64,000 nt of DNA from Eledone cirrhosa (Eukaryota), in assembly GCA_964016885.1 (NCBI GenBank), contig CAXHJY010000276.1, forward strand, positions 20,591 through 84,590, read 5' to 3'. A model generated the notes under the pieces. The model ran no database searches. It was given only the letters and a program-made list of their open reading frames with translations, and was not told the origin of the DNA. Positions 19,830 through 30,618 of this stretch are shown here, in pieces (positions within the stretch are counted from its first letter, which is position 1; each line of letters begins with the position of its first letter). Position numbers and translations under genes: made by a program.

Positions 19830-19859
19830 CTGCAATAGAAAAATAAACAATAGTAAAAA

Positions 19860-20272
19860 ATGATGGTGATGATGGTGATGATGATGATGATGATGATGGC
19901 GGTGTTGGTGGGGGTAGTGTTGATGGTGGTGATGGTGATGATGGCGGTGTTGGTGGGGGTAATTGTGATGGCGGTGATGGTGATGATGGCGGTGTTGGTG
20001 GGGGTAGTGGTGATGGTGGTGATGGTGATGATGGCGGTGTTGGTGGGGGTAATTGTGATGGCGGTGATGGTGATGATGGCGGTGTTGGTGGAGGTAATTG
20101 TGATGGCGGTGATGGTGATGATGGCGGTGTTGGTGGGGGTAGTGGTGATGGTGATGATTATAATGGTAGTGGTGATGATGCTGATGACACTGATTATAAT
20201 GTTAGTGATGTTGATAATGAATGATTCTGATGACGATGGTAATGAATGATTATGGTGAAATGATGATGATGG

Positions 20273-20310
<38 letters not shown>

Positions 20311-20321
20311 GTGATGATGAC

Positions 20322-20355
<34 letters not shown>

Positions 20356-20500
20356 ATGGTGATATTGATGGTAATGTTGGTGTAGATGGTGAGGTGATGA
20401 TTATGGAAGTGGTAATGATTACGGTGGGGGTGTTGATTATGGCGGTGATGATGGAATTGGTGATGATAAAAGTAGGTGTGATGATGATGGTGATAATGAA
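19860..20500. repeat. (GAT/GGT)n compound repeat next to the exon 4 acceptor
   Basis: Direct inspection; higher-order units gatggcggtgttggtgggggta. Confidence 0.9.
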
Positions 20501-20854
20501 GAAAATGAAGAGAAGGAAGACTAAAGTAATTACTTTAATTATAACAAAGATATCGTAGAAATACTATTTAGTGTTTAGTACAATCCAATATAATACAACA
20601 GAATAAACAATGTTGTGAAATGGTTTTTAAGCGACTAATTTGAGGGAAAAATAAGGAGAAACAGGTGCACGGATAGTACACGGGTTGTGCGTTTGTCATT
20701 TGCCGGGAAACTAGTTCCTCATTAGGTTTTATAACTCCTGCTATTCTAATTTCTCGAATTATTTATACATCTAGAAGTTGCACCGCCATTTTACGTGCAA
20801 CATTTACAACATTCAAGTAATATTTTCTTGATATAAAAAAAGAAATAAAGAAAA

Positions 20855-21325
20855 GGAAAGGAGCCAATCTTCAGATAGAACCAAGGAAACGATGTTTCCA
20901 TTGGTCTTTCCATTACTGATACTATCTGCTGGTCTCATTTCTTAGCAGAAAAAAGGAGTCAATCAGTTTGGACCAAGGAAACTATGTTTCTGTTGGTCAT
21001 TTTATTACTGATACTATCTGCTAGACGCAACTGCTGGCAGAAGAAATAAGCCTATGGCCAGATCAGACCAAGAAAACCATGTTTCTGTTAGTTATTTTAT
21101 TGCTGATACTATCTGCTAGACGCAACTCCTGGCAGAAGAAATAAGCCGATGGCCAGATCAGACCAAGAAAAGTATGTTTCTGTTGGTTTTATATTGCTGA
21201 TATTATCTGCTAGACATAACTTCTGCCAGAAGAAAGGAGCCGATCGTTAGATCGGACTAAGGAAACAATAGTTCTATTGGATTTTTCATTACTGATACTA
21301 TCTGTCAGTCATAACTCTTGACAGT
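20855..21325. repeat. about 94-bp structured minisatellite, 5 copies
   Basis: ctgatactatctg recurs near 20916, 21008, 21103, 21197 and 21292. Confidence 0.85.
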
Positions 21326-22248
21326 TCTGGACTCAGAACTGACTTGTGGCTACGCAACAACAACGTCACAAACTTACTTTTATTCCGAGGTGATAAATAA
21401 GGGTCATTGATTGATGTTGATAGAGATCTTGAGACACCAGGACTCCCAACAAATTCTTCCTGAACTGATTCGTGGCCACCAACATCAATTGTAGGAGTTC
21501 CTTCTTTTACAAACGATGGTTTACATTCGTATTCACCTAATTAAATATAAAAGACAGAAATATATATTTATATATATATTGAAAGGTTGGGAGTTCGAAT
21601 CCTTTATTTTCATCTTGCTCCAGTTCAACGACTACTGGTCTTACACAAACATACCTTGTCATTCGTGACCTCCCCAAAAAGTGTGTGTGTGTGTGGGGGG
21701 GGGGGGGTTTACGACGAATAATACATCAAATCTTATCCATACACCCAATGATGAGAGAGACTCTTTCCATCAGAGTGGACGATTACGATAATATAGGGAA
21801 ATAGTATGAACAACATTAGGCTGTGAACATGTTACCTAGAATAATAGATAGCAACAACGAAAATCACACACACACACACACCTATATATAAATTCGCCCA
21901 CTTATTCTTGAGAGAGCTGAAGGGGCAGGGTCCTAGGTCCCATGGTTCTCTCAGTAATCCAGCTGGATCCAAAAGCGGTATCCAAACACCTTGCTAGTGA
22001 TCAGCTTCTGGATCTCTTGCTGGTTGGCCCGTAAAATTTGTCCTGCGATTATTTCCTTAAACAGTGAAAGCAGATTTTCGTAGCACCGGAGCTGTGATTT
22101 CTTGCTGCGGAGAAGTAACGACTCAGTGGCTGAAGGACCACCATGTTCAAACAGGAAGTTAAAGATACCATCTATACGAATACATACATTACATACATAC
22201 GTTTCACTATATATATACGTACGTTGCATTACACACTCATTACATTCA

Positions 22249-23911
<1,663 letters not shown>

Positions 23912-26900
23912 TTGGAATGAATGCTCTGAAATAGCGATATATATGTGAATATAGACACAGAATATTCGAAAATATTCTGTATGTTTATAATAAACATTTT
24001 GAAGACCTAATCGCTATAGAATAGAATACGTCACGTATTACAATTAGATTCTCGATAAAAGCAAGGGAAGTAAGTCTACGCGTTTCATTCTTGTTAGAAT
24101 TCATCAGGACTACATATCCAGTGCTTTCATCGAGAATGACACAGCTAGAGACTTATAGAATACTTAGCTGTGTACAGGAACTGGTTTGAAAGAGCGGTTG
24201 CCGGTCCGGCAGAAATTAGAAATTGGAATGAATGCTCTGAAATAGCGATATATATGTGAATATAGACACAGAATATTCGAAAATATTCTGTATGTTTATA
24301 ATAAACATTTTGAAGACCTAATCGCTATAGAATAGAATACGTCACGTATTACAATTAGATTCTCGATAAAAGCAAGGGAAGTAAGTCTACGCGTTTCATT
24401 CTTGTTAGAATTCATCAGGACTACATATCCAGTGCTTTCATCGAGAATGACACAGCTAGAGACTTATAGAATACTTAGCTGTGTACAGGAACTGGTTTGA
24501 AAGAGCGGTTGCCGGTCCGGCAGAAATTAGAAATTGGAATGAATGCTCTGAAATAGCGATATATATGTGAATATAGACACAGAATATTCGAAAATATTCT
24601 GTATGTTTATAATAAACATTTTGAAGACCTAATCGCTATAGAATAGAATACGTCACGTATTACAATTAGATTCTCGATAAAAGCAAGGGAAGTAAGTCTA
24701 CGCGTTTCATTCTTGTTAGAATTCATCAGGACTACATATCCAGTGCTTTCATCGAGAATGACACAGCTAGAGACTTATAGAATACTTAGCTGTGTACAGG
24801 AACTGGTTTGAAAGAGCGGTTGCCGGTCCGGCAGAAATTAGAAATTGGAATGAATGCTCTGAAATAGCGATATATATGTGAATATAGACACAGAATATTC
24901 GAAAATATTCTGTATGTTTATAATAAACATTTTGAAGACCTAATCGCTATAGAATAGAATACGTCACGTATTACAATTAGATTCTCGATAAAAGCAAGGG
25001 AAGTAAGTCTACGCGTTTCATTCTTGTTAGAATTCATCAGGACTACATATCCAGTGCTTTCATCGAGAATGACACAGCTAGAGACTTATAGAATACTTAG
25101 CTGTGTACAGGAACTGGTTTGAAAGAGCGGTTGCCGGTCCGGCAGAAATTAGAAATTGGAATGAATGCTCTGAAATAGCGATATATATGTGAATATAGAC
25201 ACAGAATATTCGAAAATATTCTGTATGTTTATAATAAACATTTTGAAGACCTAATCGCTATAGAATAGAATACGTCACGTATTACAATTAGATTCTCGAT
25301 AAAAGCAAGGGAAGTAAGTCTACGCGTTTCATTCTTGTTAGAATTCATCAGGACTACATATCCAGTGCTTTCATCGAGAATGACACAGCTAGAGACTTAT
25401 AGAATACTTAGCTGTGTACAGGAACTGGTTTGAAAGAGCGGTTGCCGGTCCGGCAGAAATTAGAAATTGGAATGAATGCTCTGAAATAGCGATATATATG
25501 TGAATATAGACACAGAATATTCGAAAATATTCTGTATGTTTATAATAAACATTTTGAAGACCTAATCGCTATAGAATAGAATACGTCACGTATTACAATT
25601 AGATTCTCGATAAAAGCAAGGGAAGTAAGTCTACGCGTTTCATTCTTGTTAGAATTCATCAGGACTACATATCCAGTGCTTTCATCGAGAATGACACAGC
25701 TAGAGACTTATAGAATACTTAGCTGTGTACAGGAACTGGTTTGAAAGAGCGGTTGCCGGTCCGGCAGAAATTAGAAATTGGAATGAATGCTCTGAAATAG
25801 CGATATATATGTGAATATAGACACAGAATATTCGAAAATATTCTGTATGTTTATAATAAACATTTTGAAGACCTAATCGCTATAGAATAGAATACGTCAC
25901 GTATTACAATTAGATTCTCGATAAAAGCAAGGGAAGTAAGTCTACGCGTTTCATTCTTGTTAGAATTCATCAGGACTACATATCCAGTGCTTTCATCGAG
26001 AATGACACAGCTAGAGACTTATAGAATACTTAGCTGTGTACAGGAACTGGTTTGAAAGAGCGGTTGCCGGTCCGGCAGAAATTAGAAATTGGAATGAATG
26101 CTCTGAAATAGCGATATATATGTGAATATAGACACAGAATATTCGAAAATATTCTGTATGTTTATAATAAACATTTTGAAGACCTAATCGCTATAGAATA
26201 GAATACGTCACGTATTACAATTAGATTCTCGATAAAAGCAAGGGAAGTAAGTCTACGCGTTTCATTCTTGTTAGAATTCATCAGGACTACATATCCAGTG
26301 CTTTCATCGAGAATGACACAGCTAGAGACTTATAGAATACTTAGCTGTGTACAGGAACTGGTTTGAAAGAGCGGTTGCCGGTCCGGCAGAAATTAGAAAT
26401 TGGAATGAATGCTCTGAAATAGCGATATATATGTGAATATAGACACAGAATATTCGAAAATATTCTGTATGTTTATAATAAACATTTTGAAGACCTAATC
26501 GCTATAGAATAGAATACGTCACGTATTACAATTAGATTCTCGATAAAAGCAAGGGAAGTAAGTCTACGCGTTTCATTCTTGTTAGAATTCATCAGGACTA
26601 CATATCCAGTGCTTTCATCGAGAATGACACAGCTAGAGACTTATAGAATACTTAGCTGTGTACAGGAACTGGTTTGAAAGAGCGGTTGCCGGTCCGGCAG
26701 AAATTAGAAATTGGAATGAATGCTCTGAAATAGCGATATATATGTGAATATAGACACAGAATATTCGAAAATATTCTGTATGTTTATAATAAACATTTTG
26801 AAGACCTAATCGCTATAGAATAGAATACGTCACGTATTACAATTAGATTCTCGATAAAAGCAAGGGAAGTAAGTCTACGCGTTTCATTCTTGTTAGAATT

Positions 26901-27997
26901 CATCAGGACTACATATCCAGTGCTTTCATCGAGAATGACACAGCTAGAGACTTATAGAATACTTAGCTGTGTACAGGAACTGGTTTGAAAGAGCGGTTGC
27001 CGGTCCGGCAGAAATTAGAAATTGGAATGAATGCTCTGAAATAGCGATATATATGTGAATATAGACACAGAATATTCGAAAATATTCTGTATGTTTATAA
27101 TAAACATTTTGAAGACCTAATCGCTATAGAATAGAATACGTCACGTATTACAATTAGATTCTCGATAAAAGCAAGGGAAGTAAGTCTACGCGTTTCATTC
27201 TTGTTAGAATTCATCAGGACTACATATCCAGTGCTTTCATCGAGAATGACACAGCTAGAGACTTATAGAATACTTAGCTGTGTACAGGAACTGGTTTGAA
27301 AGAGCGGTTGCCGGTCCGGCAGAAATTAGAAATTGGAATGAATGCTCTGAAATAGCGATATATATGTGAATATAGACACAGAATATTCGAAAATATTCTG
27401 TATGTTTATAATAAACATTTTGAAGACCTAATCGCTATAGAATAGAATACGTCACGTATTACAATTAGATTCTCGATAAAAGCAAGGGAAGTAAGTCTAC
27501 GCGTTTCATTCTTGTTAGAATTCATCAGGACTACATATCCAGTGCTTTCATCGAGAATGACACAGCTAGAGACTTATAGAATACTTAGCTGTGTACAGGA
27601 ACTGGTTTGAAAGAGCGGTTGCCGGTCCGGCAGAAATTAGAAATTGGAATGAATGCTCTGAAATAGCGATATATATGTGAATATAGACACAGAATATTCG
27701 AAAATATTCTGTATGTTTATAATAAACATTTTGAAGACCTAATCGCTATAGAATAGAATACGTCACGTATTACAATTAGATTCTCGATAAAAGCAAGGGA
27801 AGTAAGTCTACGCGTTTCATTCTTGTTAGAATTCATCAGGACTACATATCCAGTGCTTTCATCGAGAATGACACAGCTAGAGACTTATAGAATACTTAGC
27901 TGTGTACAGGAACTGGTTTGAAAGAGCGGTTGCCGGTCCGGCAGAAATTAGAAATTGGAATGAATGCTCTGAAATAGCGATATATATGTGAATATAG
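23912..27997 (-). mobile_element. retrozyme-like tandem array, left block (about 13.1 x 311 bp, HHR on minus strand)
   Basis: Exact 311-bp period (ttggaatg at 23912, 24223, ...). Each unit has the reverse complement of a type I HHR; 13 complete cores. The 3' end runs into (TA)n. Confidence 0.9.
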
Positions 27998-30618
27998 CGT
28001 AGACTTACTTCCCTTGCTTTTATCGAGAATCTAATTGTAATACGTGACGTATTCTATTCTATAGCGATTAGGTCTTCAAAATGTTTATTATAAACATACA
28101 GAATATTTTCGAATATTCTGTGTCTATATTCACATATATATCGCTATTTCAGAGCATTCATTCCAATTTCTAATTTCTGCCGGACCGGCAACCGCTCTTT
28201 CAAACCAGTTCCTGTACACAGCTAAGTATTCTATAAGTCTCTAGCTGTGTCATTCTCGATGAAAGCACTGGATATGTAGTCCTGATGAATTCTAACAAGA
28301 ATGAAACGCGTAGACTTACTTCCCTTGCTTTTATCGAGAATCTAATTGTAATACGTGACGTATTCTATTCTATAGCGATTAGGTCTTCAAAATGTTTATT
28401 ATAAACATACAGAATATTTTCGAATATTCTGTGTCTATATTCACATATATATCGCTATTTCAGAGCATTCATTCCAATTTCTAATTTCTGCCGGACCGGC
28501 AACCGCTCTTTCAAACCAGTTCCTGTACACAGCTAAGTATTCTATAAGTCTCTAGCTGTGTCATTCTCGATGAAAGCACTGGATATGTAGTCCTGATGAA
28601 TTCTAACAAGAATGAAACGCGTAGACTTACTTCCCTTGCTTTTATCGAGAATCTAATTGTAATACGTGACGTATTCTATTCTATAGCGATTAGGTCTTCA
28701 AAATGTTTATTATAAACATACAGAATATTTTCGAATATTCTGTGTCTATATTCACATATATATCGCTATTTCAGAGCATTCATTCCAATTTCTAATTTCT
28801 GCCGGACCGGCAACCGCTCTTTCAAACCAGTTCCTGTACACAGCTAAGTATTCTATAAGTCTCTAGCTGTGTCATTCTCGATGAAAGCACTGGATATGTA
28901 GTCCTGATGAATTCTAACAAGAATGAAACGCGTAGACTTACTTCCCTTGCTTTTATCGAGAATCTAATTGTAATACGTGACGTATTCTATTCTATAGCGA
29001 TTAGGTCTTCAAAATGTTTATTATAAACATACAGAATATTTTCGAATATTCTGTGTCTATATTCACATATATATCGCTATTTCAGAGCATTCATTCCAAT
29101 TTCTAATTTCTGCCGGACCGGCAACCGCTCTTTCAAACCAGTTCCTGTACACAGCTAAGTATTCTATAAGTCTCTAGCTGTGTCATTCTCGATGAAAGCA
29201 CTGGATATGTAGTCCTGATGAATTCTAACAAGAATGAAACGCGTAGACTTACTTCCCTTGCTTTTATCGAGAATCTAATTGTAATACGTGACGTATTCTA
29301 TTCTATAGCGATTAGGTCTTCAAAATGTTTATTATAAACATACAGAATATTTTCGAATATTCTGTGTCTATATTCACATATATATCGCTATTTCAGAGCA
29401 TTCATTCCAATTTCTAATTTCTGCCGGACCGGCAACCGCTCTTTCAAACCAGTTCCTGTACACAGCTAAGTATTCTATAAGTCTCTAGCTGTGTCATTCT
29501 CGATGAAAGCACTGGATATGTAGTCCTGATGAATTCTAACAAGAATGAAACGCGTAGACTTACTTCCCTTGCTTTTATCGAGAATCTAATTGTAATACGT
29601 GACGTATTCTATTCTATAGCGATTAGGTCTTCAAAATGTTTATTATAAACATACAGAATATTTTCGAATATTCTGTGTCTATATTCACATATATATCGCT
29701 ATTTCAGAGCATTCATTCCAATTTCTAATTTCTGCCGGACCGGCAACCGCTCTTTCAAACCAGTTCCTGTACACAGCTAAGTATTCTATAAGTCTCTAGC
29801 TGTGTCATTCTCGATGAAAGCACTGGATATGTAGTCCTGATGAATTCTAACAAGAATGAAACGCGTAGACTTACTTCCCTTGCTTTTATCGAGAATCTAA
29901 TTGTAATACGTGACGTATTCTATTCTATAGCGATTAGGTCTTCAAAATGTTTATTATAAACATACAGAATATTTTCGAATATTCTGTGTCTATATTCACA
30001 TATATATCGCTATTTCAGAGCATTCATTCCAATTTCTAATTTCTGCCGGACCGGCAACCGCTCTTTCAAACCAGTTCCTGTACACAGCTAAGTATTCTAT
30101 AAGTCTCTAGCTGTGTCATTCTCGATGAAAGCACTGGATATGTAGTCCTGATGAATTCTAACAAGAATGAAACGCGTAGACTTACTTCCCTTGCTTTTAT
30201 CGAGAATCTAATTGTAATACGTGACGTATTCTATTCTATAGCGATTAGGTCTTCAAAATGTTTATTATAAACATACAGAATATTTTCGAATATTCTGTGT
30301 CTATATTCACATATATATCGCTATTTCAGAGCATTCATTCCAATTTCTAATTTCTGCCGGACCGGCAACCGCTCTTTCAAACCAGTTCCTGTACACAGCT
30401 AAGTATTCTATAAGTCTCTAGCTGTGTCATTCTCGATGAAAGCACTGGATATGTAGTCCTGATGAATTCTAACAAGAATGAAACGCGTAGACTTACTTCC
30501 CTTGCTTTTATCGAGAATCTAATTGTAATACGTGACGTATTCTATTCTATAGCGATTAGGTCTTCAAAATGTTTATTATAAACATACAGAATATTTTCGA
30601 ATATTCTGTGTCTATATT
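27997..30618 (+). mobile_element. retrozyme-like tandem array, right inverted block (about 8.4 x 311 bp, HHR on plus strand)
   Basis: Reverse complement of the left-block unit; CTGATGA at 28282+311k for k=0..7; the 3' end runs into (TA)n. Confidence 0.9.
28276..28319 (+). ncRNA. type I hammerhead ribozyme (representative of 21 copies)
   Basis: gtAGTC-CTGATGA-ATTCT(aaca)AGAAT-GAAA-CGCG-TA^GACTtac: complete core, stem I agtc/gact, 5-bp stem II, minimal palindromic stem III (ACGCGT), GUA cleavage triplet after 28312. Confidence 0.9.

Follow-up and report, generated by a model that had tools for sequence, protein, structure and literature searches.

What process could write a short, non-coding repeat into an intron as a long array of identical copies running in two opposed directions? 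We address this question for a 64,000-nt stretch of the Eledone cirrhosa genome (GenBank assembly GCA_964016885.1, contig CAXHJY010000276.1, positions 20,591 to 84,590; hereafter the window, whose own numbering is used throughout), in which the last intron of a homeobox gene contains a tandem array of a 311-bp hammerhead-ribozyme repeat. By the features examined in its sequence, the array is a non-LTR (non-long-terminal-repeat) retrozyme, and neither an autonomous Penelope-like element (PLE) nor a viroid. We think it likely that it belongs to a young, non-autonomous retrozyme family that is mobilized in trans by a PLE.

An exact search for a 34-nt ribozyme motif returned eight matches on the plus strand, beginning at 28282, and 13 on the minus strand, at a spacing of 311 bp. 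This result agrees at 21 of 21 sites with a first-pass annotation of the same DNA, which had reported 21 intact hammerheads, 13 minus and 8 plus, in a 311-bp unit. With the nucleotide that follows the predicted cut taken as unit position 1 (28313), both arms of the array align to one 311-bp unit with no mismatches, and the whole copies are identical (19/19). The unit has a GC content of 35% and no coding capacity, the longest stop-free frames of the circular unit being 59 amino acids (plus) and 54 amino acids (minus); the annotation had likewise claimed identical copies without a long open reading frame (ORF). The arms consist of the unit alone, with no LTR pair in a search that did not extend to primer-binding sites or polypurine tracts. 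Both strands had been seen by the annotation, but it had missed the head-to-head junction, here at 27997, that recurs throughout the family.

The 3' ends of the insertions obey a strict rule. We parsed the window array together with 17 similarity-picked arrays, the 40 B-end sites listed first for C1 (B being defined below) and 14 further stretches, with L090, L094 and L140 entered in the end table by hand and L078 reduced to its outer arms. Among 58 parsed arrays, 53 are two-armed and head to head, and a gap interrupts one more; the end table has six arrays that are not two-armed, one of them owing to the gap. In every two-armed array the minus arm precedes the plus arm, so that the 5' ends meet inside and the 3' ends face (TA)n. 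These 3' ends fall into two clusters, A at unit positions 119–140 (131, n = 28; 140, n = 13) and B at 164–171 (166, n = 37), with modes (131 and 166) that lie 35 nt apart. Every two-armed array has one A end and one B end (53/53), including all 14 that were picked regardless of their ends (p = 6e-5 under random ends) and all 39 that were picked by a B end. Among the ends listed for the first 105.8 Mb of C1, a B end is the outward partner of 40 of the 50 A ends, and there are no A+A or B+B pairs. The ten unpaired A ends comprise eight single arms, one array with an 11-nt B stub and one duplicate, which has a B-type end at a gap; 13 of 53 B ends are without a listed partner, and the ten of these that were inspected comprise eight with a variant A end, one single-armed array and one interrupted by a gap. 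Sites picked by an A end are more often single-armed, and A-only arms outnumber B-only arms by 11 to 2 among the loci seen, a hint that A may be primed first.

Other features of the ends bear on how the arrays are made. All 18 similarity-picked arrays, the window array included, lie between TA-type repeats. Site B is not TA-like (4/10) and is therefore set by position. Junctions between arms are scattered over the unit, mostly with overlaps of 0–5 nt or short fillers. Just 3 of 106 5' ends fall at unit positions 1–10, against 3.4 expected, so there is no pile-up at the cleavage site; the 5' ends are non-uniform over the unit (Kolmogorov–Smirnov p 0.004), in part from short arms that start at 131–166. 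A hairpin lies just before site A (fold z = -3.5, equalled by 1 of 200 shuffles); in a comparison of 12 sequences, both partners differ in 2 of its 11 predicted pairs. This hairpin and an 18-nt block between A and B (138–155) are the best-kept parts of the unit and thus a likely protein-binding site.

The same positions are used in an older sister retrozyme family (L049:2426-2870; L148-L167) with a unit of ~314 nt, 188/311 identical (60%) to ours. Its insertions end at the aligned A and B positions despite the changed sequence, with one A and one B end at eight of the nine loci at which both ends could be classed, the ninth being rearranged; 20 loci were sampled, and 11 have one or no classed end. 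The 18-nt block is identical at 17 of 18 positions. The family was found by homology elsewhere in the unit, and it has an intact ribozyme core in the same place, with three different but paired stems (by eye). Its ribozyme has 118 matches at up to two mismatches, and its insertions are mostly short. Further related subfamilies occur at L172, L180, L186 and L187.

This anatomy is that of PLE insertions. PLE insertions are described as having an inverted 5'-truncated copy, a tail of 30–40 bp that is often at one end only, and a bias towards (TA)n (PMC8557442). A purified PLE protein, a predicted dimer, cuts AT-rich DNA and extends both of its strands, initiating at two internal RNA sites whose spacing equals the tail (PMC11167929). 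Because the inverted copy, a 35-nt one-end tail, (TA)n targets and two start sites are all present in the retrozyme insertions, we consider it very probable that a PLE enzyme is the mobilizer, and the Penelope-like reverse transcriptase (RT) suggested by the first-pass annotation is supported by these features, which it had not used. Endonuclease-containing (EN+) PLEs (PMC8557442; Poseidon PAc, PMC11167929) share with the retrozyme the inverted truncated copy, the 30–40-nt tail at one end, targets that are AT-rich or (TA)n, and a hammerhead with two internal start sites downstream of it. Unlike them, the retrozyme has no ORF, consists of the tandem unit alone and uses its start sites one per arm without exception, a division that the in vitro work did not resolve.

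The 311-bp family is widely dispersed and, as the annotation had proposed from this single locus, young. A 32-nt core searched genome-wide at up to three mismatches gave 9,596 + 9,303 = 18,899 matches, with none for a reversed control; the family amounts to ~5.9 Mb, or ~0.2% of a 3.0-Gb, microsatellite-rich genome. A similarity search with the unit gave 496 matches on many contigs (the best 37 of 203 candidates were scored), and two insertion-end patterns matched the forward strand 780 and 672 times. Since each of these matches stands for one site, we estimate at least about 1,500 insertions. Across 47 arrays with at least three whole copies (441 copies), we found 18 haplotypes and 45 single-copy variants, and 24 of these arrays, counted by eye, have no internal variant. 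In addition, L104 and L135 are one insertion present twice, beside a gap, a probable assembly duplication; L135 was excluded from the counts.

Variation within arrays bears on how many templates were copied at each insertion. The window haplotype, 158C, is present in all window copies and in none of the 46 other arrays, and in the window array, L047, L094, L098, L101 and L117 alike, a variant seen in no other array is fixed in the two arms. The modal unit is the same in both arms of 33 of 37 arrays (arm-shuffled mean 3.7, maximum 11), and the four discordant arrays differ by single-copy or partial variants only. Because modal units agree and array-unique variants are fixed in both arms, we conclude that the arms come from one template pool. 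The longest array (L140-L141; C1:97461500-97476480) has arms of 45.3 and 2.9 units and spans 15 kb; median arm lengths are 4.1 units for A and 5.0 units for B, with no difference between them (p 0.36), and many arms shorter than one unit follow the same end rule. Together, the shared variants, the 45-unit arm and the lack of a 5' pile-up at the cut favor one-step copying of one template, probably a monomeric circle; because starts are internal, a circle without a 3' end can serve as template. We therefore regard it as highly likely that the whole array was made at insertion, and as rather more probable than the reverse that its template was circular and not linear. The rolling-circle origin from a 311-nt circle proposed by the first-pass annotation is thus favored by the shared variants and 45-unit arms, while the circle itself is inferred. 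In the sequencing runs of three other organisms (X4-X6), we found one self-closing 340-nt contig each, at depths of 18–34; these were set aside as evidence for circles, because tandem DNA gives the same result and trace DNA is a likely source. At L095:1649-1920, a 272-bp foreign piece lies at the arm junction; it is 96–98% identical to a repeat clustered on C25 at 19–24 Mb (39 of 40 scored matches) and represents template capture or a later insertion.

In the circle model, the monomers would be released by the ribozyme. The core of this hammerhead is complete; stem II has 5 bp and the loop AACA, stem I has 4 bp and, beyond a bulge, 2 more, and helix III is a single A–U pair closed by CGCG. The annotation had labeled it 'minimal', a term that does not fit: a short helix III with a palindromic loop is the canonical metazoan type I form (PMC4209133). 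In our calculations, closing helix III in the monomer moves the energy from -4.7 to +0.7 kcal/mol, a cost of ~5.4 kcal/mol, whereas two palindromic ACGCGU strands pair at -9.5 kcal/mol. A double-hammerhead (dimer) form is therefore expected, in keeping with the dimeric cleavage predicted by the annotation, and an axolotl hammerhead with the same helix III is active mainly as dimers (PMC7229834). The covariance-model search that the annotation had proposed gave no match at the Rfam gathering score and only a weak alignment to HH9 (17.8 bits against a cut-off of 52, E 0.22), and the ribozyme call comes from the core, the stems and the cross-family compensation, not from Rfam. A hammerhead scan returned no motifs in the rest of the window and 0–1 in each of 20 shuffles, and no ribozyme motif was found on the antisense strand of the unit. 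Array-fixed variants hit the free N7 position, loop II, the base of stem II and stem I (wobble or compensated). None falls in the invariant core, an absence that is not significant alone with 22 variant sites, and we dropped within-family core conservation as an argument for selection because so few fixed variants would miss the core by chance; the intact core and re-paired stems of the sister family are the stronger argument for the ribozyme. On balance, the hammerhead is predicted to cleave itself, and probably does so. Elsewhere in the window, at 45877-46241, a degenerate 32/64-bp tandem repeat carries CUGAUGA in most units; no complete hammerhead there passed the scan.

We propose that transcription of the arrays would begin each cycle, after which adjacent hammerheads would pair via ACGCGU and cut after GUA, releasing monomers of 310–311 nt that a host ligase would circularize. 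A PLE RT-endonuclease, probably a dimer, would then bind the hairpin and the A–B segment and cut both strands of a (TA)n tract. Copying from one strand would be primed at site A and copying from the opposite strand at site B, the two sites being separated by 35 nt of RNA. Each RT could circuit its template several to 45 times, and joining of the two cDNA ends via 0–5 nt of microhomology or short fillers would leave a head-to-head array with a tail at one end. In a more specific version, which we advance tentatively and rate as possible but somewhat short of probable, one PLE RT dimer would sit on one 311-nt circle at two sites, and its subunits would prime both (TA)n strands and roll up to 45 times, writing a 2–15-kb palindromic array in one event, a process that may be termed two-sided rolling-circle target-primed reverse transcription.

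Which PLE might supply the enzyme? The retrozyme unit has no ORF with an RT or GIY-YIG endonuclease and thus is not an autonomous PLE. Autonomous PLEs abound in this genome: a search with PF01541 gave 10,596 candidates, of which the best 150 were scored, and several PLE families have ORFs encoding RT and GIY-YIG. No pseudo-LTR (pLTR) match was found at 42 GIY-YIG loci, where there was only a sister retrozyme inserted beside a PLE. A set of 20 loci that carry the conserved tail motif consisted entirely of relatives or fragments of the retrozyme, with no partner PLE among them, and the PLE 3' ends that were compared have no tail in common with the retrozyme. A Hydra-like PLE family (L188, C1:41166800-41174199; L189; L126:6830-7010), assigned to this clade by motifs in PMC8557442 and not by a tree, has 17,809 ribozyme matches. 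The family falls in RT-like clusters of the Atlas at 0.98, and in L188 the ORF is split over two frames. L188 and the retrozyme have 25 of 28 nt of the ribozyme core and stem II in common, stem II being nearly identical; similarity over the whole unit is marginal (32 of 1000 shuffles as good), and the ~68-nt L188 tail is without similarity to the retrozyme tail (598 of 1000 shuffles). All three two-armed copies of the Hydra-like PLE that were seen have one short and one tailed end, and the ORF-bearing PLEs L129 and L188 display this two-end pattern. Unit positions 227–270 were also considered as a decayed antisense copy of the Hydra-like ribozyme, a match that is good locally and that we rejected because it fails over the whole unit (130 of 1000 shuffles).

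Several points weigh against PLE-driven copying of a ribozyme-made circle. In the loci compared, neither the hairpin nor the tail occurs in any autonomous PLE, and in one insertion of another PLE family (L108) both arms end at the same site. In the published PLE assay, ribozyme cleavage is dispensable, unprocessed RNA is the main template and start sites did not differ between the two strands (PMC11167929); eight of nine Xenopus retrozyme dimers show no cleavage in vitro (bioRxiv 2026.07.22.740005). The 10.1–11.1 pair of our hammerhead is A–U or U·U, not the conserved G–C (PMC4209133), which argues against high activity, and cleavage, the monomer RNA and the circle are predictions from DNA. 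At the window locus, both insertion ends lie inside (TA)n, where target-site duplications are unreadable, and the assembly holds no second or empty allele. Finally, variants recur at intervals of 7 (L047), 7 (L094) and 4/2 units (L095), 3 of 47 arrays, and L106 switches allele mid-arm. These patterns count against a pure monomer circle, which would not yield them; they could stem from multimeric templates or later exchange.

Some of these points would be accommodated if the same PLE machinery copied an uncleaved linear multimer arising by read-through, or a multimeric circle, with a weak or dispensable ribozyme. PLE RT takes unprocessed RNA in vitro (PMC11167929), multimers could account for the variant spacings and the L106 switch, and an absence of 5' ends piled up at the cut site also fits uncleaved RNA. 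We nevertheless regard such templates as unlikely, though deserving serious consideration. Array-unique fixed variants would need a monomer bottleneck followed by re-multimerization, serial copying of whole arrays would accumulate variants where 24 of 47 arrays have none inside, arms can be as long as 45 units, and a sister family of 60% identity retains the ribozyme core although its stems, still paired, have changed. The periodic variants and the L106 block might also reflect local exchange, and arm lengths within arrays are uncorrelated (Spearman 0.15, p 0.27), as might be expected had a short PLE-derived insertion grown by local unequal crossing-over and homogenization, the model favored in bioRxiv 2026.07.22.740005. 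Growth of this kind would require near-perfect homogenization across an inversion at ~1,500 loci with end and junction phases unchanged; many arms of less than a unit obey the same rule, and the older sister-family insertions are short, not grown. We therefore find satellite growth improbable.

A minus-then-plus arrangement also results from twin priming, which produces 5' inversions of L1 (PMC2837659), and site A is able to pair with (TA)n. Mobilization by a LINE (long interspersed element) nonetheless seems very improbable to us, because the insertions have neither poly(A) nor a tail repeat, both primings occur at fixed internal sites 35 nt apart, of which B has no complementarity to the target, and ORF-bearing PLEs (L129, L188) have the same two ends. 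There is scarcely any chance that fold-back reads or a collapsed repeat created the structure during assembly. The window contig is not among the large ones, and consensus calling could affect the perfect identity and exact copy number of the array. However, the arms differ in length and end phase, the sequences on either side do not mirror each other, 53 loci that differ in haplotype and junction have the same structure, and an independent run (X1) contains the unit, the head-to-tail joint and an A-type end leading into TA.

Parts of our preferred reading, PLE-mediated copying of a retrozyme template at insertion, were proposed earlier. A PLE–retrozyme link was suggested previously (PMC7229834, PMC7761336), as were circular templates for PLE tandems (PMC4209133). 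Metazoan non-LTR retrozymes (Cervera and de la Pena 2020, PMC7229834; axolotl HHR_Amex1, mussel, coral) have the same non-coding tandem unit, of 170–400 nt with GC <50%, and likewise one type I hammerhead per unit, thousands of copies and co-occurring PLEs; HHR_Amex1 also has a 1-bp helix III with a palindromic tetraloop. RNA and cleavage were demonstrated for those retrozymes, whereas the present family is known from DNA alone; unlike them, it displays two-armed head-to-head insertions, fixed A and B ends and (TA)n targeting. For vertebrate retrozymes, which have a unit of ~310–340 bp, a PLE partnership is argued from co-occurrence and pLTR homology, with local amplification preferred for tandems (Li, Clavereau and Pollet, bioRxiv 10.64898/2026.07.22.740005); here the evidence is insertion anatomy, which favors arrays made at insertion, and pLTR homology was not established in the loci compared. 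Viroids and viroid-like circular RNAs resemble the retrozyme in size, hammerhead and predicted circular monomer, but the retrozyme is genome-encoded (~18,900 DNA copies) and has a ribozyme on one polarity only; the viroid-like circular RNA named by the annotation is a prediction. The terms 'inverted', 'orientation' and 'AT-rich' are absent from the main text of PMC7229834, and term look-ups in PMC13282606 and PMC8490949 likewise found no such insertion anatomy. Neither retrozyme arrays joined head to head and bearing PLE tails nor any cephalopod retrozyme was described in the literature searched, which included few subscription papers and no repeat databases. Thus, the class is known and the insertion anatomy is apparently undescribed for retrozymes, although it may be general among them and simply unreported.

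The E. cirrhosa genome is rich in ribozymes of other kinds. A third tandem hammerhead family (L036, L082, L091, L128, L135), of ~470–510 bp with palindromic loop CUAG and mostly AACA in loop II, is head to head in L082 and L091 and has itself been invaded by the 311-bp family. A further ten or so hammerhead families lie in TA-rich flanks (L037, L047, L057, L058, L102, L106, L121), and one short and one tailed end were seen by eye at L037, L047 and L129. At L119:5710-6625, the TA tract behind a PLE contains a tandem unit of 459 bp whose hammerhead has a long stem II; we rejected it as a relative because it has no significant similarity to the 311-bp unit (score 48; shuffles 43 +/- 6).

The array lies in a single-copy, paired-type homeobox gene on the minus strand of the window (55.3-19.35 kb), with exons near 55.0, 35.4, 33.0 and 19.6 kb. 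Positions 35312-35488 encode a homeodomain (PF00046, E 4.7e-14), and a C-terminal OAR-like motif falls below the cut-off (E 0.0019). We take the gene to be Dmbx1-like. Its pre-mRNA would carry 13 sense ribozymes and, as an inverted repeat, a double-stranded stem of 2.6 kb. Coordinates of the array and its surroundings are collected in Table 1.

Table 1. Features of the retrozyme array and its host intron, in window coordinates.
Feature	Position	Strand	Remarks
Left (TA)n target tract	22307..23910	.	TRF period 2, 822 copies; sequence
B arm	23911..27997	-	13.14 units, 13 ribozymes; 3' end at unit 166 (window 23911), 5' end at unit 123
35-nt 'tail' (unit 132-166)	23911..23945	-	only at B end of insertion; cf. 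PMC8557442, PMC11167929
Head-to-head junction of two 5' ends	27997	.	1-nt overlap; unit positions 123 and 307
A arm	27997..30618	+	8.43 units, 8 whole ribozymes; 3' end at unit 129
One monomer, cleavage site to cleavage site	28313..28623	+	311 nt; predicted linear or circular RNA
Type I hammerhead	28276..28320	+	parts in the next four rows
Hammerhead stem I	28276-28281; from 28313	+	5' strand; 3' strand
Hammerhead core	28282-28288; 28303-28306	+	CUGAUGA; GAAA
Hammerhead stem II	28289-28302	+	loop AACA
Hammerhead palindromic loop; predicted cleavage site	28307-28310; 28312	+	CGCG; cleavage after GUA
UUCG-loop hairpin, conserved	28407..28434	+	immediately upstream of start site A; candidate element for RT binding
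Start site A (unit 129-140)	28441..28452	+	most (TA)n-like stretch of the unit
Internal A-to-B segment (unit 132-166)	28444..28478	+	contains 18-nt block 138-155 and, at 28478, start site B
Right (TA)n target tract	30613..30673	.	TRF
Last intron of paired-type homeobox gene, containing the array	19830..32705	-	flanking exons ~33075-32706 and 19829-19351; exon translations, splice signals

This retrozyme family fills about 0.2% of the genome of E. cirrhosa with long perfect inverted repeats. A mover of animal retrozymes and the use of RNA circles as templates were proposed earlier from co-occurrence and homology (PMC7229834; bioRxiv 2026.07.22.740005). Here, every two-armed insertion that was parsed carries a PLE footprint with named, exact start sites, which makes both questions testable with a 311-nt RNA. 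The insertions are unusually direct genomic evidence for PLE-driven, two-sided and probably rolling-circle reverse transcription, and the strict one-A-one-B rule is an in vivo constraint on the origin of PLE tails and inversions. More broadly, if a single RT dimer does work on a single circle, the one-sided tail and inverted 5' copy of PLEs would be a general footprint of dimer geometry, and the 'ribozyme satellites' of animals would be single insertions, not slowly grown satellites.

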